Shown piece by piece: positions 2,420 to 63,692 of a stretch of 64,000 nt of DNA (positions are counted from its first letter, which is position 1; each line of letters opens with the position of its first letter). The translations under genes and the position numbers were made by a program. The notes under the pieces are model-generated. The model searched no databases and had not been told where the DNA came from. It saw nothing but the letters and a program-made list of their open reading frames with translations. Source of the stretch: Mobula hypostoma (Eukaryota); the NCBI RefSeq assembly GCF_963921235.1, contig NC_086097.1:168084001-168148000 (forward strand). Reading direction: 5' to 3'.

Positions 2420-4090
2420 AATACAAGGATGAAAGATCAAGTTCAATCGTTTGTTAGTTTATTACAGTCACATACACGGAGGTACAGTGAAAAACTTGCC
2501 TTGCAAACTGTCAGACAAATCATTTCATTACAACAGTGCATTGAGGTAGTGCAAAGTAAAGCAGTATCAGAGTACAGAATAAAATGTTACAGTTAAAGAG
2601 AAGGTACAGATATACAATGTTTAAGGTCATATGAATGCAGATTGTGGAATCCATCTTATCGTACTAGGGAACTGCTGAATCATCTTATACCAGCAGGCTA
2701 GAGCAGCCTTGAGCCTGGTGGTACATGCTTTCAGGCTCTTGTATATTCTGCCCATTGGGAGAGGGATGAAGAGAGAATTACGGGGTGGGTGGGCCTTTGA
2801 CTTTATTGGCTGGTTTACCAATGAACTGAGAAGTATAGGTAGAGTCTATGGAGAGGAGGTTGGTTTCCATGATATGCTGAGCTCTGGCAACAACCCTTTG
2901 TGGCTCTTGTTGTCACGGGAACAAGCTGTGATATATCTAGATAGGATGCTTTTGAATGTGCATTGGTAAAAATTGATGAGGGTCAAAGGGGAATGCCAGA
3001 TTTCTTTGGCCTCTGGAGGAAGTAAAGCTGCTGGTGAGCTTTCTTGGCAGTGGTGTCAACATGGCTGAACCAGGACAGGGTATTGCTGATGTTTATTCCT
3101 AGGAATTTGAAACTCTCAACCTTCTTGACTTAAGCACAATTGATATTAAAAGGAGCATGTGTACCACATACAAAAAATCCTGGAGGAACTCAGCAAGTCA
3201 TCTATGGAGGGGAGTAAATAGTCAACGCTTTGGATTGAGACCCTTTGTCAGGACTGTAAAGGAAAGAGGCAGAAACATGAATAAGTAGGTGGGGTGAAGG
3301 GAAGGAGTACAACCTGACAGGCGAAAGGTGGGACCAGGTGAGGGGAAAGGTGGGTGTGAGGATGGATGGGGGAGGGAGGAATGAAGTAAAAAACTGGGAG
3401 GGATAGGTGGAAGAAGTAATCTAATAGAAGACAGTGTACCATGGAAGAAAGGGAAGAAGAAGGGGAACTGGAGGGCGGTGAAATGTGGGTGAGAAGAGAA
3501 GGGATGAGGGGATAACTAGAATGATGAAAGGGCAAAAAAGAGGAGGAGAAAGGGGTGAAATTATCAGAAGTTAGAAAAATTTATGTCCTTGCCACCAACT
3601 ACCCAGATGGAATATGACATATTGTTCCTCCAATTTGAGTTTGGCCTCATCACAGTGGTTGAGGAGACCATGGGCAGACATTTCAAAATGGGAATGGAAA
3701 GTTGAATTAAAATGGGAGTCCCTCTTCCCAAAATCAATGACTAGATCTTTTGTTTTAGTGACAGAGAGGAAAAGATTGTTGTCATGACACCATGTTACTA
3801 GATGTTCTATCTCCCTCCTGTACTCTGACTCATCCATTATTTGAAATGTGGCCCGCTATGGTGGTGTCATCTTCAAACTTGTAGATAGAGTTACAGCAGA
3901 ATCTGGCCACATAGTCACGTGTAGAATAAGGGGCTCAGGATGCAACTTTATTGGGCACCAGTACTGAGAATATCCATGGCTGAAATGTTGCTGCCCATCC
4001 TTACTGATTGTGGTCTGTTGGTCCAGTTGAGGATCCAATTGCAAATGAAGGTGTTTAGTCTCAGGCCTAGGGGTCTGGAGATGAGTTTCC
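2420..4090 (-). mobile_element. Decayed Rex1-like LINE fragments, interrupted by a Penelope-like fragment
   Basis: DESEYRREIEHLVTWCHDNNLFLSVTKTKDLVIDF and CNWILNWTNRPQSVR motifs; boundaries approximate. Confidence 0.7.
3166..3720 (-). mobile_element. Penelope-like element 3' fragment (GIY-YIG C-terminal part plus degenerate hammerhead at 3220-3255)
   Basis: HFNSTFHSH...KLEEQYVIFHLGS motif; same layout as the copies at 29.9k, 53.2k and 61.3k. Confidence 0.75.
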
Positions 4091-4217
4091 TTATAGTAAA
4101 CAGAAATATGGATGATACCATGCGAGGCATAATATAGAAAGTCCCTGCACTATAAATTAACATTATTTTAGAAAAGTTAGGCATGCATCAAGAATATGTT
4201 AAATCATTGGGCAGAGG

Positions 4218-5720
4218 GGCGGCACAGTAGTGTAGTGATTAGTGCAATTGCTTTACAATACCAGCAGTTCCTGATCAGCATTCAATTCCCACCATTGTCT
4301 GTACATTCTCGCCGTGACCTCGTGGGTTTCCTCCCACATTCCAGAGATGCATGGTTAGGTTTAGAGTGAGTAAAAAATGTCTAACTTGAAGGTATTGCAG
4401 AAAGTGTGAGTATGAAAGAGAATATTTATCAATTAATTGTTCAAAGGACATCAATCTATCTTCTTTAAATAAATCCAAAAAAGAATTAATACCTTTATTT
4501 TTCCAAAGTAGAAAAATTGGATCACTCAAAGAAGGCTTAAAAAAGTAATTAAAAATATTTAAGTAATTTCCCTAACATATTGGAGGCTGACCTGTTAGAT
4601 ACTATTATGAGTATGAATCCTTTGATTAAGAGTTCTATTGGAAGAATTTATAATTTACTATTACAATGGGATAAGCGTCCTTTGTCTAAAATTAAACAGG
4701 ATTGGGAAAAGGAACTTAATTTGACTTTTATGATGGAGGATTGGATGCGGATATTGAAGTTGGTTAACTCTTCTTCAATTTGTGCTAGCCACTCATTGAT
4801 TCAATTTAAAATTGTACATCGTTATCATTTGACAAAGGAGAGACTTTCTAAAATCTTTCCTAATCTTGATAGTCATTGTGATAGATGTAAACCTGAGATA
4901 GCTACACTGACACATATGTTTTGGTTCTATATTGGAACAGTTCTGGAAGTCGGTTTTCTCAACAATTTCTAAAGCACTTAAAATTAATTTACAACCTGAT
5001 AAATTAACTGTGCGTTTTGGAATAGCTCCTCAAAATATTCATGGTATTTCTGTGTCTGACCAACATGTTATTGCATTTGTTACATTGATAGCTAGAAGGG
5101 CCATTTTGTTGAAGTGGAAAGATACATCAGCTCCCACTTTGTCACAATGGTTCTCTCAAGTGATGCTATGTCTTAGTTTGGAGAAAATTAGAAGTCGAAC
5201 CTTTGAACCTTTATTTGATTTTGAGAAAAGATGGGGCTCATTTGCTCATTATTATCATTTGAGTTAATTGATATAACTTTTCCACAATCTAATTGTAAAT
5301 TCTTTTAGCATATTTTCTTTTCTTGCTGGCAGTTTGATGTTTATTTTTAGAAGCTTTTTGTATGATGCATGGCTCCGGGGTTTTTTTTCTCACTTTTTTG
5401 CTTAGTAGGATTTTTTTTTTGTTACCACAGAATTTTGTTTTCAATCTTTAAGATGATGGGTTTTTTGAGGCATTGTAAGTGTTGTTACTTCAATGTACTC
5501 ATGTTATTTTTCCTATATATACAATAAAAAGATTTGAAAAGAAAAGAAAGGTTTAGAGTGAGTGAGTTGTGGATATACTATATTAGTGCCAGAAGCTTGG
5601 TGTCACTTGCAGGCTGCCCCCAGCACAATCCTCAGAATGTGTTGGTTGATAACATAAAGCGACACATTTCACTGTATGTACATGACGAAGAAAGCTAATC
5701 TTTAAAGATCTTAATCTTTA
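4218..5720 (+). mobile_element. tRNA-derived SINE split by an L1 insertion
   Basis: tRNA-like head GGGGCGGCACAGTAGTGTAGTG. The body resumes at 5564; a related intact copy lies at 10291-10530. Confidence 0.7.
4372..5548 (+). mobile_element. 5'-truncated L1 ORF2 3' end with 5' inversion (4372-~4550 inverted)
   Basis: L1 C-terminal motifs QFKIVHRYHLT and C.RC....ATLTHMFW. AATAAA plus A-rich tail; 15-bp TSD AGGTTTAGAGTGAGT at 4357-4371 and 5549-5563. Confidence 0.9.
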
Positions 5721-6439
5721 ATGTTTACAGGTCATAGAGAATAAAATCATATCATGGTGCAACTTTGTTTCTTACTGTTGGGCCTCAGCTGCAGTGTTGT
5801 GAACAATTCAAGGCACCAGAGGGCTTTAAAAAAGGGAACTCGGTCCATTTCCAGGATGAGAGATGAAGCTTATGGGGGGGGAGGGGTGGTGATTAGAGTT
5901 TAGAACTGCTATCTCAGGAACAGAAAAGATTAAGAGGGGCCTAATAATTGTTTTCATGACAATGACGCGTCTCTATGTAGATGGATAACTCTTCCTACTG
6001 GTAAGCAATTTAATGTCAGAAATCTGAAATCATTAATATATCACCAACCTTACAGCCTCACAGAGCCTAGAAACAGTTCTGTCCCTTCTGATTGCCAACT
6101 TGCACTCACTACCCTACCCCTGTGAGGCTTACTTTTGTCTGACAAGATTTGCTCCTGGTTCACTCTCTCAAGGACTATTGCCCAATCTTGGTTATTTGAA
6201 GAATGGCCTTGCAATTTAATGGTCTCATCATCAGAGAGTGGTTCCAGTCTTTACTCCTGTTCAACCGTGCAGAGCTTATATTAGGAGTCCAAGTGACATG
6301 AGTATTTGATTAGACCAGAAACTGGCTCTCCTCAATGATTAGTGTAAGGATCAAGGATGAAGATAGTAATAGGAAACTTGATAGTGAGGAAGACAGACAT
6401 GAGATTTGTGGCCACAGAAGAAACACCAGGAGAGTGTAC

Positions 6440-8977: not shown

Positions 8978-9151
8978 CTAATTAATGAATGAATTATATT
9001 TTGTCAATTTTGTGACCACCGGATATGATGGCTGTATAAATGGAAGCCCATGTTTTTCACACATCTTTTGTAGACACTTCTCATATTCTTTATTCAGTTT
9101 AGCAGATTCCTGCAGAGCATACTTCAAATCTTCAATTTCTTCAAAGAACCC
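8978..9151 (-). CDS. Coiled-coil gene, last exon (GFFEEIEDLKYALQESAKLNKEYEK...NSFIN*)
   Basis: Acceptor catttacag|GGG, phase 0, TAG at 8978-8980. FFEEIEDLKY matches my recollection of the CEP290 C-terminus. Confidence 0.9.
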   Translation of the reverse strand, partial: GFFEEIEDLKYALQESAKLNKEYEKCLQKMCEKHGLPFIQPSYPVVTKLTKYNSFIN

Positions 9152-10290
9152 CTGTAAATGCCATGCAAAATATAAAATTAGTTTAATATACCAAACATTC
9201 AAGATGCTCATAAAGATCTATTTTTTTTGTTCCAAGGATGAAGAGACAAAAAAGGTTAAAATGGCAATGACAGATTTGGATATTCAAATGTCTTGCTCCC
9301 ACTTGGTCCTTGTTTCAAATCAAACTGTAAATTACATTCTATGGCAACAAAGTATGTTGTAATCTGATCAGATGGAATGGTTAGGTAGCAAATGCCCACG
9401 CTGTGCAACATACTGCCTACTGAGCACAGACAATTTATAACCTACCACTGTTTATAGCAACAGCTTTGCTACAAGGTGATTCCTGATTATTGGATTAGGC
9501 ACAGCATTAAACAAGAACTCAACACGTGCTAATTTCATTACTTTACCTCCATAACAGCAGTTGTACACATATAATTTATAAGAGACTCTTTAAAACAAAA
9601 GCTTTAAGAAATTTATGTCCAAGAATAAGTGAAGAAAAGAATAAATCAGGCAGGGATGATTTGATAATGCTAAATTTCAAAGCTAAAAGTAGATGTGTGG
9701 AGAAAAGATTATTGAAATGAGAGTAGAGGACGTAGCCTGTTCCATCATGGCCAGAGCCCTCCCCACAAATGACAGCAACTACATAAAAGTGCTGCTTCAA
9801 GAAGGTGTTATTGACATCAAGGAACCCCACCATCCAAGTCATGCTCCCTTCCTGCTATTAACATCAGGCAGGATTTAAAAGCCCAGAGTCACAGACCACC
9901 AGGTATAGGAACAGCTGCTCTCCTATTACTGTCAGTTTCTTGAACCAACCTTTACATCCCTAGCCCAATCTCAGCAAACAAACACTACCGACCATCTCCA
10001 ACACTACCATGGACTGGCACCTGACTCTGGTTTTCTTGCACTAATGTTTTGTTTTACACAGTCTTTTTCTTCAGTTTTGTATAATTTATATTTGGCCTTA
10101 GCCCAAAAGTCAACTTTTGGTTTATTTCCATAGATGCTGCCTGATCTGTTGAGTTCCTTCAGCATTCTCTGTGCATTGCTTTGGACTTCCAGAATCTGCA
10201 AATTTTTTTGTTTACAGTATATTTCATGTTTTGCCTGAATCTATGTGCTTGTGATGCTGCTGAAAAGATGTTTCTCATTGCACATAAACT

Positions 10291-10530
10291 GCGGGCAGCA
10301 CAGTAGTGTAGCAGTTAGGGAAATGCCATTTTACAGCCATGGTTTCCTCCTATATTCCAAAGATGTACAGGTTAAGGATAGTGAGTTGTGGACATACCAT
10401 GTTGGCACTTAAAACATGGTTACACTTGCAGGCTGCCCCCAGCACCAACCTCGCCAAACTGATTTGACGCAAGTGCCACATTCACTGTATCTTTCCTTGT
10501 ACATGTAACAAATAAAGCTAACATTTATCT
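10291..10530 (+). mobile_element. tRNA-derived SINE
   Basis: Homologous to the split SINE at 4218-5720. Confidence 0.65.
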
Positions 10531-10630
10531 TGATATAGGACAATAAACTCATGAGCAATGCTAAATGAGGCAGTACATTCAGGAATGTAACCCATAAACA
10601 CAAATGGCACAATACATTTTAACTCAGTTA

Positions 10631-11521
10631 CATAGGAGCAGAATTAGGCCATTTGGCCCATCAAAGTCTGATTCACCATTCCATCATGACTGATTTATTA
10701 GCCCTCTCAACCCATTCACCTGCATTCATCCCATAAACTTTGACGCCCTGATTAATCAAGAATCTATCAACCACCACCTTAAATATACCCAATGAGCTGG
10801 CCCATACAGTCATCTGTAAATGAATTCCACAGATTCACCACTCTCTGATTAAAGAATTTTTTCCTCATATCTGTTCTAAATGGGTGTCCCTTAATTCTGA
10901 GGCTGTGCCTTCTGCTCCTAGACTCCCCCACTATAGCAAGCATCCTCTTCACACCAACTCTATCCAGAACTTTCCATATTTGATAGCTTTCAATAAGATC
11001 ACCCATCATTCTTCTAAACTCCAGCCCGTACAGGCCCAGAGCCGTCAAATACTCCTCATATATTAACCCTTTCAACCCTGGGGGTATTTCTTGTGAATCT
11101 CCTCTGAACCCTCTCTAACACCAACACATTGTTTCTTAGATAAGCAGCACAAAACTGCTCACAATACTCCAAAAGCGGACTGACTGATGCCTTATTAAGC
11201 CTCAGCATTACATCCTTGCTTTGGCATACTAGCCCTCTGGAAATGAATGCTAACATTGCATTTCCCTTCCTTACCACTGACTCAACCCGCAAATTAATCT
11301 TCAGGGTATCCTGCAAGAGCACTCCCAAGTCCTTCTGCACTTTTGATTTTTTAAATTCTCTCCTTTTAAAAAAAAATTGCCCATGCCTTTATTCTGACTG
11401 CCAAAGTACATGTCCATGCACTTCCCTATATTATACCCTATCCATCACTTCTTCGTCCATTCCCCTAATCTAAGTCCTTCTGCAAACACCCTCCTTCCTC
11501 AAAACTACTTGCCCCTCCAAC
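10631..11521 (-). mobile_element. CR1 LINE 3' part (RT C-terminus and 3' UTR), decayed
   Basis: ORFs 10779..11075(-) and 11056..11340(-) carry CR1 motifs. Confidence 0.85.
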
Positions 11522-11523
11522 TA

Positions 11524-11624
11524 CAGTGGTGCTAGAAAGTTTGTGAACCCTGTAGATTTTCTCTATTTCTGCATAAATATGACCTAAAATATGATCAGAT
11601 CTTCACGAGTCCTATAACTAGATT
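11524..11624 (+). mobile_element. Tc1-like terminal fragment
   Basis: TA|CAGTGGTGCTAGAAAGTTTGTGAACCC terminus; no partner end found. Confidence 0.55.
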
Positions 11625-13873
11625 AAACATAGAAACATAGAAAATAGGTGCAGGAGTAGGCCATTCAGCCCTTCGAGCCTGCACCGCCATTTATTATGAT
11701 CATGGCTGCTCATCCAACTCAGAACCCCGCCCCAGCCTTCCCTCCATACCCCCTGACCCCCATAGCGACAAGGGCCATATCTAACTCCCTCTTAATATAG
11801 CCAATAAACTGGCCTCAACTGTTTCCTGTGGCAGAGAATTCCACAGATTCACCACTCTCTGTGTGAAGAAGTTTTTCCTAATCTCGGTCCTAAAAGGCTT
11901 CCCCTCTATCCTCAAACTGTGACCCCTCGTTCTGGACTTCCTCAACATCGGGAACAATCTTCCTGCATCTAGCCTGTCCAATCCCTTTAGGATCTTATAC
12001 GTTTCAATCAGATCCCCCCCTCAATCTTCTAAATTCCAACGAGTACAAGCCCAGTTCATCCAGTCTTTCTTCATATGAAAGTCCTGCCATCCCAGGAATC
12101 AATCTGGTGAACCTTCTTTGTACTCCCTCTATGGCAAAGATGTCTTTCCTCAGATTAGGGGACCAAAACTGCACACAATACTCCAGGTGTGGTCTCACCA
12201 AGGCCTTGTACAACTGCAGTAGTACCTCCCTGCTCCTGTACTCGAATCCTCTCGCTATAAATGCCAGCATACCATTCGCCTTTTTCACCACCTGCTGTAC
12301 CTGCATGCCCACTTTCAATGACTGGTGTATAATGACACCCAGGTCTCGTTGCACCTCCCCTTTTCCTAATCGGCCACCATTCAGATAATAATCTGTTTTC
12401 CTATTTTTGCCACCAAAGTGGATAACTTCACATTTATCCACATTAAATTGCATCTGCCATGAATTTGCCCACTCACCCAACCTATCCAAGTCACCCTGCA
12501 TCCTCTTAGCATCCTCCTCACTGCTAACACTGCCACCCAGCTTTGTGTCATCCGCAAACTTGGAGATGCTGCATTTAATTCCCTCATCCAAGTCATTAAT
12601 ATATATTGTAAACAACTGGGGTCCCAGCACTGAGCCTTGCGGTACCCCACTAGTCACCGCCTGCCATTCTGAAAAGGTCCCGTTTATTCCCACTCTTTGC
12701 TTCCTGTCTGCTAACCAATTCTCCACCCACACCAATTCCTTACCCCCAATACCGTGTGCTTTAAGTTTGCACACTAATCTCCTGTGTGGGACCTTGTCAA
12801 AAGCCTTTTGAAAATCCAAATATACCACATCCACTGGTTCTTCCCTATCCACTCTACTAGTTACACCCTCAAAAAATTCTATGAGATTCGTCAGACATGA
12901 TTTTCCTTTCACAAATCCATGCTGACTTTGTCCGATCATTTCACCGCTTTCCAAATGTGCTGTTATCACATCCTTGATAACTGACTCCAGCAGTTTCCCC
13001 ACCACCGACGTTAGGCTAACCGGTCTATAATTCCCCGGTTTCTCTCTCCCTCCTTTTTTAAAAAGTGGGGTTACATTGGCCACCCTCCAATCCTCAGGAA
13101 CTAGTCCAGAATCTAACGAGTTTTGAAAAATTATCACTAATGCATCCACTATTTCTTGGGCTACTTCCTTAAACACTCTAGGATGCAGACCATCTGGCCC
13201 TGGGGATTTATCTGCCTTCAATCCCTTCAATTTACCTAACACCACTTCCCTACTAACTTGTATTTCGCTCAGTTCCTCCATCTCACTGGACCCTCTGTCC
13301 CTTACTATTTCTGGAAGATTATTTATGTCCTCCTTAGTGAAGACAGAACCAAAGTAATTATTCAATTGGTCTGCCATGTCCTTGCTCCCCATAATCAATT
13401 CACCTGTTTCTGTCTGCAGGGGACCTACATTTGTCTTTACCAGTCTTTTCCTTTTTTACATATCTATAAAAGCTTTTACAGTCCGTTTTTATGTTCCCTG
13501 CCAGTTTTCTCTCATAATCTTTTTTCCCCTTCCTAATTAAGCCCTTTGTCCTCCTCTGCTGAACTCTGAATTTCTCCCAGTCCTCAGGTGAGCCACTTTC
13601 TCTGGCTAATTTGTATGCTTCTTCTTTGGAATTGATACTATCCCTAATTTCTCTTGTCAGCCACGGGTGCACTACCTTCCTTGATTTATTCTTTTGCCAA
13701 ACTGGGATGAACAATTGTTGTAGTTCATCCATGCAACCTTTAAATGCTTGCCATTGCATATCCTTTAAGTCAATCCTTTAAGTGTCATTTGCCAGTCTAT
13801 CTTAGCTAATTCACGTCTCATACCTTCAAAGTTACCCCTCTTTAAGTTCAGAACCTTTGTTTCTGAATTAACT
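11625..13873 (-). mobile_element. Young 5'-truncated CR1 LINE with near-intact RT
   Basis: 464-aa ORF 12004..13398 with KSPGPDG, NYRPVSLTS, DFQKAFD, GVPQGSVLGP and FADD; (TTTCTATG)n tail. Confidence 0.95.
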
Positions 13874-13880
13874 ATTAATT

Positions 13881-15172
13881 AAGAACATAAGAACATGATA
13901 ACACATGAAATAGGAGCAGGAGTAGGCTATTCGGCCCATCAAGCCTGCCCCCCCATTCAATAAGATCATGGCTGATCTGTCCGTAAACTCGGCTCCATCT
14001 ACCTGCCTTTCCCCCATAACCCTTAATTTCCCTACTATGTAAAAATCTATCTAACTGTATCTTAAATATAATTAGTGAAGAAGCCTCAACTGCTTCCCTG
14101 GGCAGAGAGTTCCACAGATTCACCACTCTCTCGGAAAAACAATTTTTCCTCATCTTCGTATGAAACCTTCTCTCCTGAATCTTGAGGCAATGTCCCCTAG
14201 TTCTAGTGCCACCTACCAATGGAAACAACTTTCCTACTTCTATCTTATCTATCCCTTTCAAAATTTTGTATGTTTCTATAAGATCCCCTCTCATTCTTCT
14301 GAATTCCATAGAGTATAGTCCCAGGCAACTCAATCTCTCCTCATAGGTTAACCCCTTCATCTCTGGAATCAACCTGGTGAACCTCCTCTGCACTACCTCC
14401 AAAGCCAGTACTGCATATCCTTCCTCAAGTATGGAGACCAGAACTGCACACACTTCTCCAGGTGCGCCTCACCAGTACCCTATATAGTTGCAGCATGACC
14501 TCCCTGCTCTTGAATTCAATCCCTCTAGCAATGAAGGCCAACATTCCATTTGCCTTCTTAATAACCTGTTGTACCTGCAGGCCAACTTTTTGCGATTCAT
14601 GCACAAGCATTCCCAAGTCCCTCTGCACAACAGCATGCTGCAATCCTTCACCATTTAAATAATAATCTGCTCTTCTACTATTCCTTCCAAAGTGGATGAT
14701 CTCACATTTACCAACATTGTATTCCATCTGCCAGACCTTGACCCACTCACTTAACCTATCTATATCCCTCTGCAGACTCTCCACATCTTCTGTATAATTT
14801 GCTTTTCCACTCAGCTTAGTGTCATCAGCAAATTTTGCTATGCTACACTCAGTCCCCTCTTCCAGATCATCAGTGTAAATGGTAAACAGCTGCCGGCCCA
14901 GCACCAACCCCTGTGGCACCCCATTCACCACCAACTGCCAACCGGAGAAACACCCACTTATACCAACTCTCTGCCTTCTATTGGTTAACCAATCTACTAT
15001 CCATGCCAATACACCTCCTCCGACTCCATACATCCGTATCTTATTTATAAGTCTCTTGTGCAGCACCTTATCGAACGCCGTCTGGAAATCCAAGTATACG
15101 ACATCCACCTGTTCCCCTCTATCCACTGCACTCATTATGTCCTCAAAGAACTCCAGTAAGTTTGTCAAGAAA
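13881..15172 (-). mobile_element. 5'-truncated CR1 LINE (second subfamily)
   Basis: RT motifs in ORFs 14425..15321(-) and 13875..14453(-); (TTCTTATG)n tail. Confidence 0.9.
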
Positions 15173-15595
15173 GATTGAATACTTTGGAACTTTATTCCCT
15201 TAAATGTAGAAGACTGAGAGGAGATTTGATAGAGGTGTACAAAATTATGAGGGGTATAGATAGGGAAAATGCTATCAAGATTTTTCCACTGAGATTGGGT
15301 GAGACTACAACTAGAGGTCACAGGTTAATGGTAAAAGGTGAAATGTTCAATGGGAACACAAAGGGAAACTTCTTCACTCAGAGAGTGGTGAGAGTGTGGA
15401 ATGAGCCGCCAGTGCAAGTGGTGGATACAATTTCAATTTCAGTGTTTGAGAGAAGTTTGGATACCTACATGGATGGGAGGGGTATAGAGGGCTGTGGTCC
15501 AGGTGCAGGCTGATGGGACTAGGCAGTTTAAATGGTCTGGCATGGACTGGATGGGCCGAAGGGCCTGTTTCTGTATCATAGTTTTCTATGATTTT
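15173..15595 (+). mobile_element. CR1 3' end in the opposite orientation
   Basis: ORF 15175..15513(+) LYSL..RRLRGDLIEVYKIM. Confidence 0.85.
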
Positions 15596-15974
15596 ATCAC
15601 GTGTGCTGCTCAAGTAATTCCTATGTGTGCCACTTCTACTTATTACAAGTGCTCAAATTTGTAAAGCAGAGACTATTTCAAAATGCATGACGGCATGCCG
15701 ACCAGCTATCAGCTCCCTGTGACTAACAACATCCTAAAAGTTGTGCAATCAAACACAGAAAACCAGTTGTAATTCTGAGCACCACACACTAAATGCTGGA
15801 GGAACTTAGCAGGTCAGGCAGCATCTATGGAAATAAATAGTCCATGCTTCTGGCCGAGACCCTTCATCAGCTGTAATTATGTACATTTTAAGTAAGGAAA
15901 CCATAATTAGCTTGGTAATTTGAACATAGAGTGCTCATAAACTCCAGCTTTTTGTGATACGTCACCATAACAGT

Positions 15975-18660
15975 ACCTGCCTCTCAGCCAATCTTCTATC
16001 CATGCCAGCAGCTTTCCAGTAATACCACGAGCTCTCATCTTGTTAAGCAACCTCATGTATAGCACCTTGTCAAAGTCCTAATAAACAACATTTACTGACT
16101 CTATCCTTCCTGTTATTTCCTTAAAGGGTTCAAAAAGATTTGTTGGGCAAGATTTCCCCTTTAGAAAACCACGCTGACTTTGGCCTGTTTTATCACATGC
16201 CTCCAAGTACCCGAAAACCTCATCCTTAATAACAGACACCACATCTTTCCAACCACTGAAGTCAGGCTAACTGGCCTATCTTTTCCTTTCTTCTGCCTCC
16301 CTCCCTTCTTAAAGAGTGAAGCGATATTTGCAATTTTCCAGTCCTTGGGAATCATTCCAGAATCTACTGATTCCTGAAAGATGCCTCCACAATCTCTTCA
16401 GCTACCTGGGATGTAGTCTCTACCTTCAAACTTTTCAGCTTCCCAAGTGCCTTCTCCTTTGTAACAGCAGCAACACGTACATCTATCCCCTGATACTCTC
16501 ACATTTCTAGCATTTTGCAAGTGTCTTCCGTAATGAAGATTTACGCAAAATATTTAAGTTCATCCATCATATCTTTGTCCCCCTTTACTACCTCTTCAGC
16601 GTCATTTTAAGCACTCTGTTATCCACTCTCATCTACAAACGTATATATATCTAAAAAATCTTTTTGTATTCGATTTTATATCATAAGCTTTTTTTCTTTT
16701 TATGGCTTATTTAGTTGCCTTCTGTTGGCTTTTAAAAGGTTCCTAATCCTTTAACTTCCCACTAGTTCTTGCTATAGTAGTACATCTCCTCTCTTCATAT
16801 CCTTTTCAGCCACAGTTGTCTTATCCTTCCTTTAGAATACTTCTTCAGCTTTGGGATTCATCTTTCCTGCACCTTCTGAATTCCCCCCAGAAACACCAGC
16901 CATTACTGTTCTGCTGTCATCCCTACAGTGTCCCTTTCTGATCAACTTTTCCTCTCTCGTGCTTCTGTCATCCCTTTACCCCACTGTAATACTGATACAT
17001 CTAATTGTAGCTTCTCCTTCTCAAACTGCAGGGTGAATTCTGATCCCTGTCTCCTAAGGGTTCCTTTACCTTAAATTCCCAATTATTATAACACACAATT
17101 TTATATATACAAACAGAGGCACCCCAGGCCCTCTGCTTAACTACCTGTCCTTTCAATACAATATGCATCCTCAGATGTTAGGCTCCCAACTATGATTTTT
17201 AAGCCATGACTCAGAGATGCCCATAACATCATACCTGCCAATCTCTAACTGTGTTACAAGATCATCATATTCTATATATTGTGTGTATTGAAATATAACA
17301 CTTCCAGTCCTGTATTCATCACTCTTTTTGATTTTGGTCCCCACTTTAACCCATCCCACTGACTGCAAATTTGTCCTATCATCTGCCTATCCTTCCTCAC
17401 AGTCTCCCTACACACTACATCTCATTGTATACCACCTGCCCCATCCTCAACCATATCACTGTGGTTCTCATGCCTGTGCTAAATTAGTTTAAATCCTCCC
17501 CAACAGTTCTAGCAAACCTGCCCGCAAGGATACTGGTCCCCATTGAGTTCAGGTGTAACCTGTCCTTTTTGTACAGGTCATACATTTCCCAGAAGAGATC
17601 CCAATGATCCAGAAATCTGAAATGCTGCCTCCTACCCCCAATTCTTCAGCCACATATTCATCTGCCAAATCATCCTATTCTCACTAGTGTGTGATACAGG
17701 TAGCAATCCAAAGATTACTATCCTGGAGGTCCTGCCTTTCAGCTTTCTGCCTCACCCTATAATTACTCTTCTGGACCTCCTCCCTTTTCCTACCCATGTC
17801 ACTGATACCAATATCTACCACGACTTTCGGCTTTCATCCTCCCCCTTTAGAATACCATGGACCTGACCAAGACATCCCTGACCCTGGCACCTGGGAAGCG
17901 ACATACCATCCGGGTGTCTCTTTCACGTCCACAGAATCTGCTTTCTGCTCCTCCAATTACGGAGTCCCTTATCACTACTGCACTGCTCTTCTCTTCCCCA
18001 CCCCCACCTTTCCTTCTGAGCCACAGCACCAGACTCAGTGCCAGAGACTCGATCGCTGCAGATTCCCCCAGTAGGTCGTAGCCCGCCACCCCCACCAACA
18101 GTTTCCAAAGTGGTATACTTATTATTGAAGGGAACGGCCACAGGGGTACCCAGCAATGACTGCCAATTCCCTTTCCCTTTCCTGACAGTCGCCCTGGTAT
18201 CTGTGTCCTGCAACTACCTCCCTGTCGCTCCTATCTATCACCTCCTCATTATCATGTATAAACCTACAGTCATCCAGCTGCAGCTCTGTTTCCTTAACAC
18301 AGTCTCTATAAGGAGCTGCAGCTCGATGCACTTCGTGCAGGTGCAGCTATCAGGGGGACTGAAGGTCTCCCAGATTCCCACATCTCGTACAAGGAACATA
18401 CCACTACCTTCAGATCCATTTTCAGCATACTAATTATGTACTAACAGAGAAACTTACTAGAAGCTTACTTAGAACCTCTGCCTGTGCTTGTCCAAGCCTG
18501 TTGAGCCAAAATCAGACCACTCTAACAATGGCTACCCTGCTTACACCTCCTTTCTTTTTATTGGACTGGCACTGTTTGCAGATGCAAAAGAAAAGTCAAA
18601 AGTACTAGGCTCTTTTTAAACCTCACACTGCATCATCAATAAGTGACTTCTATTCCAATA
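15975..18660 (-). mobile_element. Decayed CR1 5' portion (ORF1 esterase-like, endonuclease, RT N-terminus)
   Basis: AVVIRDSVI...RDTRMVCRFPGARVRDV (ORF1); YDVMGISESWL; DWKIANI..LFKKG. Confidence 0.8.
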
Positions 18661-18720
18661 TCAGACTATGCTGCATCAAAATCTCTATATGTGTATCACC
18701 AAACACCGAATTTACTGCAC

Positions 18721-18834
18721 TTGGAGGAACTCAACAGGTCGGGCAGCATCCGTGGAAATGATTAGTCAACGTTTCGGGCCAGAACCCTTCGAGTGCTGCT
18801 TTGACCCCAGCATCTGCAGAGTATATTGTGTTTA
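18721..18834. mobile_element. Short Penelope-like insertion with truncated hammerhead and 13-bp TSD
   Basis: TSD GAATTTACTGCAC at 18708-18720 and 18835-18847. The minus strand reads GAAGGGTTCTGGCCCGAAACGTTGACT. Confidence 0.7.
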
Positions 18835-19067
18835 GAATTTACTGCACATAAATGGTCATGAATCATTAACTCTCAATCACACCAACAAAATGGGATATCA
18901 ATTTTCATGGTATAGAATATGTTTTATCATTGAAGTGTGCATCCCAGTGGTTAAAATCGATACTTTCTGGGATTGAAGGACAGTATCTGTGGTGACCAAC
19001 CAAGTGTCAGTAACACAATTAACCGGTATGGAAGGGGTACAGCAAGTAAGTTGTGAAAAATCAATAC

Positions 19068-19162
19068 CTTATCCAGTCCAGCCAACTCATTCTTCAAGCT
19101 GTTTTTCTCCTTTGTAAGTCTGTCCTTTTCCTTTTGCAGTCTTTCTACCATGAAGAGGAGCT
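19068..19162 (-). CDS. Coiled-coil gene, exon 6 (LLFMVERLQKEKDRLTKEKNSLKNELAGLDK)
   Basis: Acceptor ttttctttag|AG and donor AAG|gtattg. 95 bp, phase 1 to 0; lies within ORF 18951..19178(-). Confidence 0.9.
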
Positions 19163-22100
19163 CTAAAGAAAAGCACAAATATTAAACATTAAAATATTAG
19201 ATTCCAAACATGGTAGCTATAAACTTTTAAAGCAAACAGGCAAAATTTTGTGGTTGTATAAATTTAGTACTGCTTTAAACAGATTCATTTTATTTTAAAT
19301 CAAAGAAGTCCCTTTAGTACTTGTTAGCTCAGTCCCAAATGAGAGCAAGTGGTCTACTGATTCCATAATACAAGGAATCATTCTGGAATCTCTTCTTTCT
19401 CTCTACCTACCTACCTAAACAACAATCACATTCCACAGATATCATTACCTGAATGAATTATCTTCCAATCCTTCTTAAATACTAAGCTGGCATTCAAGGA
19501 CTATAGATGCCATGTCTTTCCACAAAAAGAGAGAAAGTCAATATGCCAATGAAGATGATTTGAGAGACATAACATGGGAGAAAATTAACAGGTGCATGGA
19601 TAAATAAAGGAGAACTAAGACAGATTTGTTATTCGACCAATGCATTTATATATCCGCCATGAAGGTCAGAGGCTGGAAAAGAGGGTGCTGATGTGAATCT
19701 AGACTCAAAGGATATGGCGAGAAGGCAGGTGTATGGGGTTGAGTGGGATCTAGGATCAGCCATGATGGAATGGTGGAGCAGACTCGATGGGCTGAATGGC
19801 CTAATTCTGCTCCTATGTCTTATGGTCTTCTAAGAGTATCTTAAATGCCTCTACCACCATCCCTGGCAGCGCGATCCACGTACTCACCATTCTCCATCAA
19901 AAAAACCTTAACTCTGACAGGACCTGTATGTATCAATACATTCAATGAGAGTATTGTGAAGAATGGTTGTTGCTAATATCAATGGTCTGGATGGGAAAGA
20001 CAACCAGAGATAATCAACACTGATTAGCTAAAGTAGGCTAAAGCCTCCTCAGTTAATGTGCTTGTGTTACAATGTTCTGTTAAATTTCTATAAGTTGTGA
20101 TTCTTGGATATGAAAGTCCATTGATTCAAAGCAGGAAGCAGCAGCACAGCCAAGTGATCAGATTTACCAAACTGCAGTGAGGGGCAGAACAATAGGAGCC
20201 TCCGATTGTGATACAGCAGTGACCGAGTGTGTTTGGTTCTCTGGTGTTGAGGGTGACATGTTGATGGTAGCTACACAGATAATTCTTCAGGCTTGCCCAA
20301 TGAAGTCCCCAGTAATGATGAGAAGGGCACTGGAGTATGCCATTTTATGTTTAATGACACTCAATTCCCTAAATGCTACATCTGCCTAAGGCAGGATATA
20401 GACTAGAGTCAGGATGACAGTGGTAAACTCCCTCAGTAGGTAAAGCAGTCAGCACTCTACCAGCTGATGTTGCAGGTTCAGGAAGCAGGAATGGAACAAG
20501 ACTGTCACGTTCATGCACCATCACAAATTTATCATTAAACAGTTGCCTCTTCCCTGAGAGAGATTCCCTTCCCTGACACAGTTGTCTAGTCCATTCAGTT
20601 GATGAAGAAACCCTCGGGCTGGTGCACTATGTCTACTGTGTTGGAGGCAGCCATGTTCTCTGTGAAACAGAGTACATAGCAATTACTCATATCCCACTGA
20701 TACAGCAGTTCTGCTTTTAGGCCTTCCATCTTGTACATTGGCCAAAGATGCCAGTGAGGAGGACCTACCTTAAGTCTTCCCTAACAACCATGTTCTCCAA
20801 CATTATGGACGCCTCCATGAACCTTCCAGGTGCTCTACTTACATTCGGGAAGGTGAAATTTGCTAAGTTTGTCAGATGATCATAAGATCCCTAATATATT
20901 TAAATAGTTTAACAGCCTGTTTGATACCACAGTATTCCTGGCTACAGATTTGAGATTTAGAAGTTCAGAACATGTTCTACTGCCTTCATAATGTCGCCCA
21001 TCTCCAGCACTATTTTATAACTCTGCACAATTTATATTGACTAAAATACTGAATGGACCAAATGCATTATAAACTCAGCTAAAGTGAAAGACAGGAAACT
21101 AGGATATCAAGGTACAAAGGTCAGCAAAGGTTTACAGATAGGTAAGTTGACTGGGTAAAAATATCACAGATGGACATAATGTAGTTAATTCGAGGTTATC
21201 TACTTTGGTAGAATAAGGATGTTAGGTGAGCCATAAGCAATCAACATTTATTGGCCTGCTATCAACCAATCCCACACTGGCTTTCTCTGATGGGTCATCG
21301 TTCCAGACAACATCTTGAATGCTCTTCGTGACCTGGTTGCACTGTTGATTTTGGCTGTGTGGTTTATTCTATGTTCCAGCTTTGTTCTATCTTCAAGCTC
21401 AGGATCTCATCTGTAGTTATAGGCTAGCACACACAACAGTTAACAACAAGATGCTGTATTTAGGACAGGCATCTCGTTCTGAAAATCAGGTACTGCTGAA
21501 CATGAGCATTATGTCAACCACATCCTACCCAAGAACCCATATGACCAATCGTTTCACAAAACTGTCCAATAGCAAAGAGCCGCACTCTTCAGTGTTCACT
21601 ATCACTGTTTGAAACTTGTCAAACATGACACCAGTAACTTTATCACATATGCTGGTGTCATCAATCATGAATGTGAAAAGTTCAAGCTGGGTAATTTGAC
21701 TGAATCACAGTTTAAATGTCTAAATTTTATTTGTGGACTTGCCGATGCAGCCTCCTGGAGCATGACCCTAATATGACTCTACAAGTTGTCACTCAAGACA
21801 GTTAGCGTTTGATCAACCTGAAATACGATTCCAACATGGTCGAGCAAAATCATGTCAACGCAATTTCCAATGGGCCATTCATCATCACTCAGCAAGTCTC
21901 CAAGAGCCAGCCACAGCCTGCTGGAGTTGTGGTGCATGGCACTGTGCAAGAAAATGCCAGTGCAAGAACCACATATGCAGCATATGCCAATGCCATTGTC
22001 ACAAAGGAGGCTTTTGCCACCCTTCACTGTCTTTTAAGCCAGTGAAACACAAGGGCAAGTAGTTTAAAGGCCATCAAACTCCACAAGCAGTTTAATGACT

Positions 22101-22844
22101 ACATTCAAAGTTGATTTCGCCACGAGAAGATGGTACAACAATATCAACAATCATTTGGTCAAGCTACAACTCAAAATAGCATTAGACATTATCATCTCCA
22201 AAAGCACGTGGCAGACTCTTGAGACCCCACCAGTCCAATGAACTCATCACTGTGCCTGCAGTGTATCGGGTGGAACCTTTCAGCTATTTGGTGAACTGCA
22301 CTGCATGGTGAAGTTGTTAAGTACTCACATTGGGCAGCTCCAATAGTCAACATCAAGAAAGCCAACAGTAGTGAAGACTTCTCAACTATTCTCAATGCAG
22401 TTTTGGAGACACATCAATACCCACATCAGTACCGACAGATCTCTTCACCTCATTGAACCATGGTCACTACTTTGCAAAGTTAAACTTGGCTGAAATCTAC
22501 CTCCAAGAAGTGGCAGAAAATTCACAGGAGCCTCTCACCATTACAACACATAAAGGGTTATGTGTTATTTTTCCTCCTCTGTCTATCTTTTAAAGGTGGC
22601 TCCTTCAACATTCCAGCAGCTTATGGATACCATGCTAAGTGGATATTGACAGTGTTACCTCAACAACACCGTTACAATAGGCACAGATCAGAAAGAACTG
22701 AACCTACTACAAGACTTTGAATTGTGACTTCTGGCAGAAAGATGCAGCCTCCTTCAAGTATCTGGGGTTCATCATAGGTGAGCATGGTCATTGCTCAGAT
22801 CCAAAACATCACTGCTATCTTAAAGATGCTTCTACCATCAGATA

Positions 22845-52149: not shown

Positions 52150-54750
52150 ATGGCTGGATTTTCTGGGAGCATTTTGGAAGGCACGGGATAGCTATATCCC
52201 AAAGGAGAAGAAATATTCTAAAAGGAGAATGACAAGGGAAGTCAAGGACAGCATAAAAGCAAAAGAGAGGGGCATAGAATATAGAAAAAAAAAGGGAAGC
52301 TAGAGGATTGGGAAGCTTTTAAAAACAACGGAAAACAACAAAAAAGCTTCAAGGAGAGCGAATAGGAAATATGAATGTATGTAAGTTACCCAATATTATA
52401 AAAGAGGAACCAAAAGTATTTTCACATATGCAAAGAGTAAAAGAGAGGTGAGAGTGGATATTGGACTGCTGAAGAATGATGCTGGAAAGGGAATAATAGG
52501 GAACAAAGAAATGATGGATAAACTTAATACGTATTTTGCATCAGTCTTCATTGTGGAAGACACTAGCCAGAAATTCAAGAGTGTCCGGGGGCAGAAATGG
52601 CTGTAGTTGCTATTACTAAGGAAAAGGTGCTTGAGAAGCTGAAAAGTCTGAAGGTAGGTAAATCACCTGGACCAGATGGACTACACCCAGAGTTCTGAAA
52701 GAGATAGCTGAAGAGGTTGTGGAGGCATTAGAAGTGTTCTTTCAAGAATCACTTGATTCTGGAATGGTTCCAGAGGATTGGAAAATTGCGAATACCACTC
52801 CATTTTTTAAGAAGGAGGGATGCAAAAAACAGGAAACTATAGGCCAGTTAGCTTGACCTAAGTGCTTACTAAGATGTTGGAGGCCATGATTAAAGATGAG
52901 GTTTAGGAGTATTTGGAGGCTCAAAATAAAATAGACTGAAGTCAACATGGTTTCCTTAAGGGGAAATCTTGCCTGACAAATCTGTTGGAATTCCTTGAGG
53001 AAATAACAAACAGGATAGACAAAAGAGTCAATGGATATTGTTTACTTTGACAAGATGCTGCACACAAGGCTATTAAACAAGGTAAGGGTCCATGGTATTA
53101 TAGGAAAAATACTAACATGGATAGAAGATTGGTTGACTGGCAGGAGCAAAGAGTGGGAATAAAGGGGGCTTACTCAGTCCATGGCCTCCTCTACTTTCGC
53201 AATGAGGCCACACTCAACACCTTATATTCCATCTGTTAGCCTCTAACCTGATGGCATGAAAATCGATTTCCTGAACTTCCGATAACTGCCCTCTTCACCA
53301 TTCCCCAGTCCCATTTCCTTCTCTCACCTTATCTCCTTACCACCTCCTTCCCCCACCCCCCATATCCTCCTCTGGTGCTCCTCCCCTTTCCCTTTCTTCC
53401 ATGGTCTTCTACCCTCTTCTATCAAATTCCCCCTTCCCCAGCCCTTTATCTCTTTCACCAATCAACTTCCCAGCTCTTTGCTCACCTCTCACGATTTCAC
53501 CTACCAGCTTGTACTTCTTCCTACTCACCCTCCATCTCTTACTCTGACTTTTCATCATTTTTCCAGTCCTGATGAACGGTCTTGTCTGAAACATCGACTG
53601 TTTACTCTTTCCATAGATGGTGCCTAGCCTGCTGAGTTCCTCCAGCATTTTGTGTGTATAGCCTATTCTGGTTGGCTGCTGGTGACTCGTAGTGTTCCGC
53701 ACAAGTTTAGCATTGAGGCTGCTTCCTTCTACATTGTATGTCAATGATTTGGATGATGGAATTGATGGATTTGTGGCCAAATTTGCAGATAATGCAAAGA
53801 TGCATGGATGGACAGGTGGTGTTGAGATAACAGGGAGTCTGCAGAGGATATAGCCAGATTAGGAGAATGGTGATCGATTGCAGTGTAGGGAAGTGTATGG
53901 TCATGCACTTTTGTAGAATGAATAAAGGTGTAGACTATTTCCTAAATGGGAGAAAATTCAGAAATCAGAGGTGCAAAGGGATTTGAGAGTCCTTTTGCAG
54001 GGTCCCTAAAGGTTAACTTTCAAGTTGAGTCGGTGGTCAGGAAGGTACATGTAATTTTAGCAATAATTTTGAGAAGATTTGAATATAATTTTTAATAAAA
54101 ATATTTTTGAGAATATGACATTTTACCAAATTTTAATTAAAAAATTTTTGGGATGACTACGATATAGAAACATAAGGCATTGGTCAGACCACACTTAGAG
54201 TACTGTGAGCAGTTTTGGTCCCCTTATCTAAGAAAATATGTGCCGGCAGGGAAAGTACATATGATGATTCCATGAATGAAAAAGTTAACATATGAGGAGC
54301 ATTTGTTAGCTCTGGGCCTGCACTCACTGGAGTTTAGAAGAATGAGGGTGGATCTCATTGAAACCTGTCAAATATTGAAAGGTCTGGATAGAATGGAAGT
54401 GGAGAAGATGGCTTCCATAGTGGGGGGAATCTAAGACCAGAGTGTACAGCCTCAAAACAGAAGGATGTCCCTTTAGAACAGAAATAAGGAGGAATTTCTT
54501 CAGCCAGAGGGTAGTGAATCTGTGGAATTCTTTGCCGTAGATGACTGTGGAGGCCAAGTCATTGGGTATATTAGAGCAGATATTGTTAGGTTCTTAATTA
54601 GTAAGAACATCAAAGGTTACAGGGAAAAGGCAGGAGAATGGGTTTAGGAGGGACAATTAATCAGCCACACAGGAATAGTGGAGCAGTCTCGATGGGGTGG
54701 GTGAATGGCCTAATTCTTCTCCTATGTCATATGATCTTCTGTTTTATGGT
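52150..54750 (+). mobile_element. Decayed CR1 ORF2 with a Penelope-like insert at 53175-53658
   Basis: Sequence encoding KSPGPDG, NYRPVSLT and QHGF.KGKSCLTNLLEF; CR1 3' UTR. Confidence 0.85.
53564..53600 (+). ncRNA. Minimal hammerhead motif in a Penelope-like fragment (53175-53658)
   Basis: CAGTC-CTGATGA-ACGGTCTTGTCT-GAAA-CA-TC-GACTG; core intact, stem II damaged. Confidence 0.7.
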
Positions 54751-61244: not shown

Positions 61245-62005
61245 TAGCCAAAGCAACAGGCAGCGTCTATGGAAATGAATAAATAGCCGATGTTTTGGGC
61301 TGAGACCCTTCTTCAGGGCTGAAAAGGAAGGGGGAAGTTTCCAGAATAAAAAGGTAGAGGGAGATGATGGAGGATAGTTAAAAGGTGATAGGTGAAGCCT
61401 GGTGGGTTGGAAAGATAAAGGGCTGGAGAAGAAGGAATCTGATAGGAGAGGAGAGTGGACCGTGGGAGAACGGAACAGAGGAGGGGACCAAGGTTGAGAC
61501 AAAAACAGGTGAGAAGAGGTAGGGGGCAAGAGTGAGAAATAGAATAGGGGAGGGGGAGGGAAATTATTTTTACTGGAAGGAGAAATCGATATTCATGCCA
61601 TCAGTGTTGTTCCTCCACCATGAGAGTGGCCTCATTTTGGGACAAAAGGAGGCCATGGACGACATATTGGAACAGGAATGGGAATAGGAATTAAAATATT
61701 TGGCCATTGGGAAGTTCTGCTTTTGGCAGATGTAGTGGTGACGCTTGATGAAGCGGTCCCCCAATTTACAACGGCTCTGACCAATGCATCGGGAGCACCA
61801 GACACAATGGATGACCCCAGCAGGTTTGCAGGTTAAATGTTGTCTCACCTGAAAGCACTGATTGGGGCCCTGAATGGAGGTGACTGGGCAGATGTAGCTT
61901 TTAGGTCGCTTGCAGGGATAAGTGGCAGGTGGGAGATTATTGGGGTGTGATGAATGGACGAGAGAAAGCAGAGAGGGGGAGGTAAAGATATGTTTAGTGG
62001 TCAGA
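61245..62005 (-). mobile_element. Penelope-like 3' fragment including decayed GIY-YIG endonuclease
   Basis: ORF 61570..61848(-) TC...GVIHCVWCSRC..IGQSRCKLGDRF, with the hammerhead downstream. Confidence 0.8.
61285..61320 (-). ncRNA. Minimal hammerhead motif with covarying stem I
   Basis: AGCC-CTGAAGA-AGGGTCTCAGCCC-AAAA-CA-TC-GGCT. Confidence 0.7.
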
Positions 62006-62478
62006 TCCCTTTGGAGATGGATTCCTTTGGATTATGTTGTCTGTTTAACTGAGATAGCACAAAGTGTTGACATAGTCAATGGAGGGGAGGCTGTTTTTTA
62101 TGAGGTGCTGAGCTGTTTCCACAACTCTGCAGTTTATTGCAATCATGTGCAGAGAAGTTGCAATAGTAAGCTGTGATCCATTGAATTAGGATAACTTCCA
62201 TCATGCATTTATAAAAATGTATGCCGAATTTCCTTAGCCTTCTGAGGAAGTAAAGGTGCTGGAGTGCTTTCTTGGCTCCATATAAGGACCATTATCACTG
62301 ATGTTTACACCTAGGGTCTTGAAGCTTTCAACCATCTCCACCTCAGCAGCATGATGCTTACAGGGAAGTGTGCACTACTCCATTTTCTGAAAGCAACAAC
62401 CAGCTTCTTTTGTTTTGCTGACCCTGAGGAAGAGGTTGTTGTCCTGACACAATGCCACCAGGCTCTCTATGAGCTTAT

Positions 62479-62761
62479 TGTTGTGTATTTAATATATCAA
62501 TAATATTTGAGTAAGATTGTAAATAAACTGTTTGATTAACAATTCTTTATTTGTTTAAATAATTCAGTACGGGTTATATTCTTTATTTAAATAATTCATT
62601 ATGGGCTATATGTAAAAGTACATCAATGGTATATGTCATTATATCACCATGTCATAAGTGCGCATTTCACTAAAGTAACGAAGGAAGTAGACACAAGTCA
62701 TCCTCAGCTCTCCTGTGTGTTTTTTTTCTTTCAGTTAACTTTTGGAATTACAAAACATAAC
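62479..62761 (+). mobile_element. Candidate Gypsy LTR with start of leader
   Basis: TGTTGTG start and ...CATAAC end, followed by a decayed TGGCGACGAG-like PBS (GGTGATGATGAG). Confidence 0.5.
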
Positions 62762-62829
62762 GGTGATGATGAGTAAGTTTTAAAACAAACCTGAGAAAAC
62801 TACCTACCTGTTGAAGCTCAGCGAGATGT

Positions 62830-63692
62830 GAAGGCGGAGCTTAGGAGAGTTAATGGTGCCTAACGGCGACTCCTTCACTTGCATCTTTGGAGACAGCTCT
62901 ATTTCCATCTTTAATATCTCTATTTTTCCCTTTCAAGGTTCTTTTGAAGACCCCGACCTGGAATTACACGCTGACTACGGTTCTTTGCGGGAATGGGACC
63001 CGCTCTCGGGGTTTCACGACTGGCCGTTGTTCGGCATGACAAGGGCTCAGCCTAAGAGCTCTGCTCGCCTTTGGAGGACCAAGTTTTTGTGGTTCTGGAG
63101 AAGGGGGGGATTGGAGGTCGGTGCCTCTGCAGAAGATCGGTGTGTTGTGGGAGCTGGAAGATCTCTGGCTGAGATCTTTGGGCACAGGACTCGGAAAAAG
63201 TGAGGCAACAGACTTTTAACACCGTAAATCAGCAAGTTATTTGTTATGTCTCCCCTCTTGCTGTGAAACGGGGTGGCGGGTGCCAATGCTTTTTTGCTGG
63301 TGGGGGGAGAGGGAATTGTTGCTTGCTGCCGCTTACACTCAAGAGGGAGGGGAGTGGGGGGTACTTTGGAGTTCTAACATTTAACTGTCATCCATTCTTT
63401 GGGGGCACTCCTCTGTTTTCGTTGATGGTTGCGAAGAGAAAGCATTTCAGGATGTATATTAAAACAACAGGAATTCTGCAGATGCTGGAAATTCAAGCAA
63501 CACACATAAAAGTTGCTGGTGAACGCAGCAGGCCAGGCAGCATCTCTAGGAAGAGGTGCAGTCGATGTTTCAGGCCCAGACCCTTCATCAGGACCTCTTC
63601 CTAGAGATGCTGCCTGGCCTGCTGCGTTCACCAGCAACTTTTATGCAGGATGTATGTTGTATACATTTCTCTGACATTAAATGTACCTTTGA
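62830..63692 (+). mobile_element. CpG-rich non-autonomous retroelement carrying the palindromic hammerhead insert
   Basis: GC/CpG-rich body, ATTAAA plus ACCTTTGAA-like tail; interrupted at 63461-63645. Confidence 0.5.
63560..63594 (-). ncRNA. Minimal hammerhead motif with intact core, in the spacer of a 53-bp palindrome
   Basis: GTC-CTGATGA-AGGGTCTGGGCCT-GAAA-CA-TC-GACT. Confidence 0.78.

Follow-up and report, generated by a model that had tools for sequence, protein, structure and literature searches.

Truncated Penelope-like elements with minimal hammerhead motifs in and around a CEP290-like gene of the ray Mobula hypostoma

In a stretch of 64,000 nucleotides from the ray Mobula hypostoma (contig NC_086097.1, positions 168,084,001 to 168,148,000; hereafter the window) a short hammerhead ribozyme motif recurs at nine dispersed sites in and around a gene for a CEP290-like protein, which raises the question of what these copies are and whether they cut RNA. 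Very probably, all nine are the 3′ ends of 5′-truncated, endonuclease-bearing Penelope-like elements (PLEs), each with a mutated or truncated form of a known minimal hammerhead that is likely inert, and the motif likely works, if at all, only in the RNA of the parent element. The motif, its location in the pseudo-long terminal repeat (pLTR) and its presence as large numbers of solo copies have already been published (PMC4209133), and what is new is the ray at very high copy number. No shark or ray report was found in the literature, in which the supplementary lists of the 2014 paper or of a 2026 preprint (bioRxiv 10.64898/2026.07.22.740005) may hold chondrichthyan motifs.

The nine copies and their parent element

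A check of the window sequence confirmed position and strand of all nine sites, which an earlier note had described as dispersed hammerhead copies. A profile hidden Markov model built from 15 natural copies, seven of them from the window, finds every one of them (E 5e-11 to 2e-35) together with two inverted pieces, and in a genome sample of 80 evenly spaced ten-kb stretches it gives 146 matches in 800 kb, with none on reversed sequence. This significance stems from the whole unit of about 110 nt, hammerhead plus tail, and not from the core boxes alone: the bare boxes, with one mismatch allowed, match 11 times in the window where 7.15 are expected, which is not above chance, whereas the tail pattern matches four times with 0.00 expected. 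The sites, named below by the first coordinate of their hammerhead part, are the following (window coordinates, strand, content).

3165..3721, minus: 5′-truncated PLE 3′ fragment with GIY-YIG end (3598-3711), pLTR, decayed hammerhead (3220-3255) and tail
3220-3255, minus: core changes of this copy, G8A, G12A and A15.1G
10094..10181, plus: worn stub of part of stem II and tail; last intron of the host gene, antisense to it
15774..15874, minus: stub of about 100 bp from CUGA (copy 15839) with core changes A15.1G, G16.2A and H17G; last intron, sense to the host
18708..18847, minus: subfamily-C stub from N7 with an inverted tail before it, hammerhead part 18764-18791; last intron, sense
29879..30517, plus: PLE insertion with hammerhead 30376-30411 (G8A); intron 5, antisense to the host
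32970..33064, plus: subfamily-D stub of about 95 bp with A6C, hammerhead 32976-33011; intron 5, antisense
53174..53657, plus: PLE 3′ fragment with GIY-YIG remnant (53174-53279), pLTR, hammerhead (53565-53599) and tail; upstream of the host start codon
61257..62020, minus: longest PLE fragment in the window, with linker and GIY-YIG, pLTR and hammerhead (61285-61320)
63450..63655, minus: young subfamily-A fold-back insertion with inverted arm (63573-63645), hammerhead (63560-63595, G16.2A) and long tail

Eight of these copies had been taken as whole, but the full motif is held by only six of them, since copy 15839 starts at CUGA and lacks the 5′ strand of helix I, while copy 18764 starts at N7 without the CUGA box. 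The ninth, copy 10094, begins within stem II and has no CUGANGA box, and none of the nine matches the intact pattern. Further changes are G10.1C, G16.2A and the loss of 1 nt from stem II in copy 53565, and G12A and G16.2A in copy 61285, the helix I of which reads AGCC/GGCU, a double change that keeps the pairing. Most core changes in the window are CpG decay, as had been supposed for the core mutations, with the exception of A6C and U11.1, which are inherited lineage traits.

Several copies show the signature of insertion. A 13-bp target-site duplication bounds copy 18764 (18835-18847 and 18708-18720), another of 13 bp bounds the insertion with copy 30376 (29879-29891 and 30505-30517), and one of 8 bp flanks copy 63560, which starts at helix I (63648-63655 and 63450-63457); a 7-bp flank repeat around copy 15839 (15872-15878 and 15768-15774) is a possible further case. 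Inverted pieces occur in three of the four window insertions with duplications (18764, 30376, 63560, perhaps 15839). A check of the flanks found no target-site duplication for copies 3220, 32976 and 53565, and a 7-bp AT-rich match at copy 10094 was rejected as probably due to chance.

The Penelope-like origin that had been proposed is borne out by the protein remnants. With the natural frame of a long copy (L044) as tblastn query, GIY-YIG remnants are found upstream of four of the nine copies (3220, 30376, 53565 and 61285). The fragment 61257..62020 retains a decayed linker and GIY-YIG domain at 61579-62019 (E 4e-34), while the insertion 29879..30517 consists of an inverted tail (29885-29918), a GIY-YIG end (29934-30068) with 96% amino acid identity to a long copy, the pLTR, the hammerhead and a long tail. 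The same picture emerges elsewhere in the genome: at 30 loci with the exact motif the homology stops at a common 3′ point and reaches 5′ for 0 to 1,140 nt, with staggered 5′ ends and frequent inverted pieces, and the sequence upstream of the motif encodes a GIY-YIG domain. Long copies encode a reverse transcriptase (RT; PADKG, YIDD), a thumb, a CKRNKCYTC linker and a GIY-YIG endonuclease with CCHH, that is, a C-x-x-C between the equivalents of GIY and YIG and two later His. In L044 a 474-amino-acid frame comprises RT and GIY-YIG, and in L061 the domains follow in that order as far as the pLTR. In 20 of 30 loci retrieved with the beginning of the open reading frame (ORF), a same-strand hammerhead lies about 170 nt before the first ATG of the long frame; five of these 20 belong to one segmental array. 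The order of the element is thus pLTR, hammerhead, 5′ untranslated region (UTR), ORF (RT, thumb, CX4CX2C linker, GIY-YIG), pLTR, hammerhead and tail. The 3′ ends are bimodal, near +100 or +134 counted from helix I, and partial tandems, inverted 5′-truncated copies and an optional tail are all seen in the family. The linker motif points to the Neptune or Nematis clade and suggests a Neptune-like element.

Some further traits of long copies were observed. A number of young ones (L079, L099, L105-L107) carry an internal duplication of about 210 nt, apparently in frame, in the proline/serine-rich part before the RT. In copies with N7=U, the core sequence CUG-AUG-AAG opens a frame of 31 codons, closed by a stop ahead of the main ORF; this ATG is missing from the young N7=C form. 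A pyrimidine tract plus AG, resembling a 3′ splice acceptor, stops in subfamily A 2 nt short of helix I (L092:1285-1300) and overlaps the first two bases of helix I in subfamilies B-D. In the Penelope element of D. virilis, an intron ends at helix I, which this acceptor-like site recalls. A donor-like CAG|GTGAGG site lies in the endonuclease region. Among the 15 joints listed, out of 383, on a long copy for contigs of four runs that are only guessed to be RNA, none is a splice joint at the acceptor-like site, a result not used as evidence, and the 5′ ends of copies in the 800-kb sample do not fall sharply on it. None of the runs listed as containing the element is on record as RNA, and the depth of the contigs tracks the number of genomic copies, so that it says nothing about expression.

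Abundance, fold and lineages of the motif

The family is very large. In the 3.48 Gb of genome searched, the exact consensus that had been read from the window occurs 878 times (control 0), although the commonest genomic form differs from it, having N7=C with U11.1. A looser intact-core pattern, in which no more is fixed than the core boxes, ACGU-H and, in helix I, the outer purine/pyrimidine, gives 91,797 matches against 114 in the control. Fragments of any state occur once per about 5.5 kb in the 80 stretches, denser even than the one per 8 kb estimated from the window, which extrapolates to 634,000 fragments (Poisson 536,000-746,000); since the sample over-predicts the intact pattern (28 matches, corresponding to 122,000), a scaled figure is about 480,000, and the family is put at roughly 0.5-0.6 million fragments. 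Intact core boxes are found in 28 of the 146 fragments, about one in five. A 2014 descriptor search reported about 9,000 motifs in Xenopus and 4,000 in coelacanth (PMC4209133). The earlier description as a very large ribozyme family stands as to size, but overstates function, because only about a fifth of the fragments keep an intact core and close same-strand partners for dimers are rare.

Two repeats of another kind were noted alongside. A segmental tandem repeat of about 4.65 kb, at least five-fold (contig C58, 11272000-11299000), contains in each unit the 5′ part of a truncated PLE and an intact-core hammerhead; it was rejected as a PLE tandem, being a segmental repeat of one truncated piece plus flank. 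A 44-bp minisatellite with at least 16 listed units (C5:220884918-220885610) derives from the family E tail and has no hammerhead.

Across the family the core boxes CUGANGA, GAAA and UH stand in register with helices I and II. Helix III and loop 3 are replaced by the palindromic 15.2-16.2 (in subfamily A, C in 39 of 40 and G in 39 of 40 copies), GAAA-CG-UH is also the majority form in the other subfamilies, and the extra nucleotide between A9 and 10.1 is A in 37 of 37 young copies; the minimal type I anatomy with a palindromic CG instead of helix III had thus been recognized correctly. Subfamilies A-D share the 36-nt motif while their flanks differ, and at the boundaries of helix I (1299/1300 and 1332-1336 of L092) loose ends are seen in contigs from four other organisms. 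In the old family E, fetched by its tail, helix I is AGUU/AACU compared with AGUC/GACU elsewhere. This compensatory pair, in which U-A replaces C-G beside the cut site, is seen as T in 13 of 20, A in 13 of 20 and both together in 8 of 20 copies, and a one-sided change at the fourth pair of stem II, U·G to U-A, occurs in 14 of 20. The support for the fold from covariation appears real but thin, with one compensatory pair in family E and none evident among point mutants. A scan with Rfam detected no hammerhead in the window, and none in an intact young copy either, so that a missing Rfam match carries no information, and the absence of a covariance-model match, which the earlier note had named as a ground for refutation, cannot discriminate. 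By nearest-neighbour energies, the hammerhead fold is predicted to be 2.2-4.0 kcal/mol less stable than a rod in which G5-G8 pair with C15.2-C17, and for the active dimer the predicted deficit relative to two rods is 5.5-10.5 kcal/mol.

The role of cleavage and the rival explanations

Several lines of evidence suggest that, in this family, cutting is weakly constrained. First, among otherwise exact copies 40,838 have U11.1 (G10.1·U11.1) and 7,538 have C11.1 (G-C). U11.1 occurs in 28 of 39 young copies and is regarded as inherited, since the C of the other CpG sites has hardly decayed in them (0-4 of 36-40). Three of four other organisms have mostly C11.1, but family E also has U11.1, so the G·U wobble seems tolerated rather than fatal, pairing being kept either way. 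Second, A6C has 1,665 pattern matches compared with a joint total of 913 for A6G and A6T, and subfamily-D flanks are common to 21 of the 30 A6C copies retrieved; window copy 32976 belongs to this older lineage, which spread with the change. In one tested hammerhead, A6C was active in Mn2+ but more than 10,000-fold slower in Mg2+ at 0.3 mM (PMC7151607). Third, of the 5′ ends of 40 young copies in the unbiased 800-kb sample, ten lie within -10..+8 of helix I, three at +9..+27, none at +28..+36 around the cut site and two in the 189 nt upstream. These three observations and the predicted rod fold all fit the report on an anole PLE, the hammerhead of which needs the element protein to cut, core mutants being without effect on insertion in vitro and no RNA-seq reads ending at the site (PMC11167929), as well as the low activity of PLE hammerheads reported in 2014 (PMC4209133).

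From this a mechanism can be sketched. The element protein would nick the target and start reverse transcription internally at two tail positions, as described by Frangieh in 2024 (PMC11167929), and premature stops or fold-backs of reverse transcription would give the stubs. Copies that span the cut site would have been made on RNA that was uncut or had been re-ligated, and the pile-up of 5′ ends at the front edge of helix I may mark the 5′ end of the RNA or a stop in copying. Free RNA is predicted to prefer the inactive rod, such that any cutting would depend on a partner for the dimer and probably on the element protein, and cleavage is predicted not to be required for spread. A more far-reaching version, put forward only tentatively, is that the Penelope hammerhead is mainly a folded landmark at the RNA 5′ end and not an obligatory cutter; run-off at its front edge would yield the 100-135-bp stubs, and lineages with weakened cores (G10.1·U11.1, rod-stabilizing C7, A6C) would have spread to copy numbers in the thousands or tens of thousands. 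If true, the ray would provide a natural in vivo test of the need for PLE hammerhead cleavage. The value of the family is as a natural data set on the open question of the role of this hammerhead, since hundreds of thousands of insertions in several subfamilies, one with A6C and one with a G·U 10.1-11.1 pair, make it possible to study the need for cleavage in retrotransposition and the starting point of the template RNA.

Some points weigh against the view of truncated PLE ends for which cutting matters little. The pile-up at the front edge comes from 40 copies with boundaries drawn by local alignment, and six of its ten ends are fold-back junctions. The motif is nearly unchanged across subfamilies, which argues for some role and limits how far it can be called dispensable. 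The Pfam matches of the long copies fall below the gathering cut-offs (RVT_1 E 1.4e-4, GIY-YIG E 2.4e-3), and the clade placement is drawn from motifs only. The 20 family E copies were selected among 55 decayed ones for resembling one of their number, a choice that biases the first pair, and changed-stem intact-core copies (among 100 matches listed per search) are mostly uncompensated point mutants, as expected of dead copies. Finally, the folding energies ignore tertiary contacts.

Of the rival explanations, the strongest follows the proposal of Cervera and De la Pena, which sees in the motif an active ribozyme that works as a dimer and is essential to all lineages, cutting unit-length RNA from tandem transcripts and circularizing it. 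Core boxes and helices are indeed common to subfamilies A-E and other organisms while the flanks differ, the palindromic ACGU allows a helix III formed by two molecules, partial tandems exist, and re-ligation would restore the junction, so that copies spanning the cut site are compatible with it. The amplification of the A6C lineage despite the metal dependence of that change elsewhere (PMC7151607), the normal insertion of anole core mutants in vitro (PMC11167929) and the predicted preference for two inactive rods over the dimer speak against it, and it is judged unlikely.

That the short copies form a separate non-autonomous family, a retrozyme without long terminal repeats (non-LTR retrozyme) or a short interspersed element (SINE) that spreads via its own small, possibly circular RNA, is very improbable, even though the earlier note had called them retrozyme- or SINE-like. 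Many copies are only about 95-135 bp long and start near the front of the ribozyme, and vertebrates, one chondrichthyan among them, are reported to have PLE-derived retrozymes (bioRxiv 10.64898/2026.07.22.740005). The stubs are, instead, 5′ truncations and fold-backs colinear with the pLTR of the coding element, in several subfamilies and with variable 5′ ends, some with target-site duplications; no head-to-tail arrays were observed, no tandem array of the unit occurs in the window, and no tRNA-like head was found. Among 71 matches in the first 400 kb, one same-strand pair lies within 1 kb compared with 12 opposite-strand pairs, and five close same-strand pairs from the first 100 intact-core matches are separate insertions or inversions. 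Furthermore, if circles were opened at GUC, the resulting units would be permuted at the cut site, where 0 of 40 copies start.

It is improbable in the extreme that the likeness to a hammerhead is accidental and that the 36 nt are kept only to serve as a promoter or as an element for splicing or protein binding. The absence of a match in Rfam, the little covariation within the genome and the pyrimidine tract with AG before or overlapping helix I in subfamilies A-D would agree with this, but Rfam misses an intact copy too, family E keeps its pairing through a double change, and all letters of the core stand in register, along with the additional base that follows A9, the palindromic 15.2-16.2 and both helices, at the pLTR position known for PLE hammerheads.

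The remaining alternative concerns the host gene, which was identified by protein search:

8981..43761, minus: gene for 'centrosomal protein of 290 kDa-like' (CEP290-like)
~43726-43761, 41537-41677, 40142-40225, 38628-38723, 35994-36167, 19068-19163 and 8981-9151, minus: coding exons

Exon 8981-9151 matches CEP290-like proteins, the closest being from Mobula rays (98%); Pfam did not identify the gene. As had been stated for several copies, five of the nine lie in introns: 10094, 15839 and 18764 in the last one, and 30376 and 32976 in the preceding intron 5. The other four lie outside the coding span, the fragment 3165..3721 (minus) about 5.3 kb past the stop codon. Domestication of some intronic copies with an effect on CEP290-like pre-mRNA processing is exceedingly improbable, for although five of nine copies are intronic and two of them sense, introns cover about half of the window, so that this number corresponds to neutral insertion, and both sense copies are truncated and core-mutated. 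Host RNA is expected to be unaffected by these two (15839 and 18764).

Other repeats share the window. A 1.85-kb, extremely purine-skewed repeat of the GAGGGG type (41802-43661) occupies the first coding intron of the gene and adjoins a GC-rich stretch near the start codon. Decayed fragments of long interspersed elements (LINEs) with matches to RVT_1 and APE-type endonuclease lie at 10779-15324, 25758-26063 and 55851-58231, among them a 483-amino-acid open frame at 12007-13455 (minus), and several PLE stubs are apparently inserted into such fragments. Short frames at about 21780-22590 (within 21500-22720) are presumably decayed pol pieces of an LTR retrotransposon; Pfam gave no match above threshold for them.

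Comparison with known systems

The ray motif shares with the minimal hammerhead ribozymes of metazoan PLEs (PMC4209133) the core boxes, the short helix I, the extra nucleotide A9/10.1, the palindromic 15.2-16.2 without helix III, the location in the pLTR and the mostly solo occurrence on truncated elements. Compared with the figure for Xenopus the ray has about ten times more intact-core motifs, with search methods that differ, and stem II has 4 bp here but 7-8 bp in Schistosoma (PMC4209133). Furthermore, the G10.1-C11.1 pair was highly conserved among the 2014 matches, without being imposed by that search, whereas in the ray G10.1·U11.1 characterizes the dominant lineage and A6C one other.

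With Neptune-clade PLEs (PMC8557442) the parent element has in common a single ORF with RT plus GIY-YIG at the C terminus, the CX2-5CxxC linker and CCHH, as well as partial tandems, inverted 5′-truncated copies, an optional 30-40-bp tail and a hammerhead near the 3′ end. By contrast, the insertions of the ray are not in (TA)n, and the linker is also present in Nematis (PMC8557442). PAc, a Poseidon element of Anolis (PMC11167929), resembles the ray element in two internal start sites of reverse transcription that match the optional tail, a hammerhead in the pLTR and insertion copies spanning the cut site, but its linker is of a different type, its ORF starts at stem II and reverse transcription starts inside that ORF; in the ray the long ORF starts about 170 nt after the beginning of helix I, which leaves hammerhead and tail in the 5′ UTR.

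Non-LTR retrozymes (PMC7229834; bioRxiv 10.64898/2026.07.22.740005) share the type I hammerhead, the short non-coding pieces and the relation to PLEs, yet they consist of head-to-tail hammerhead units, while the ray copies are dispersed solo or inverted truncations of a coding element. A natural A6C hammerhead is found in phage Bcep176 (PMC7151607), with the same core substitution as the subfamily-D lineage of copy 32976; it is a monomer that prefers Mn2+, whereas the ray motif is minimal and known here from its sequence.

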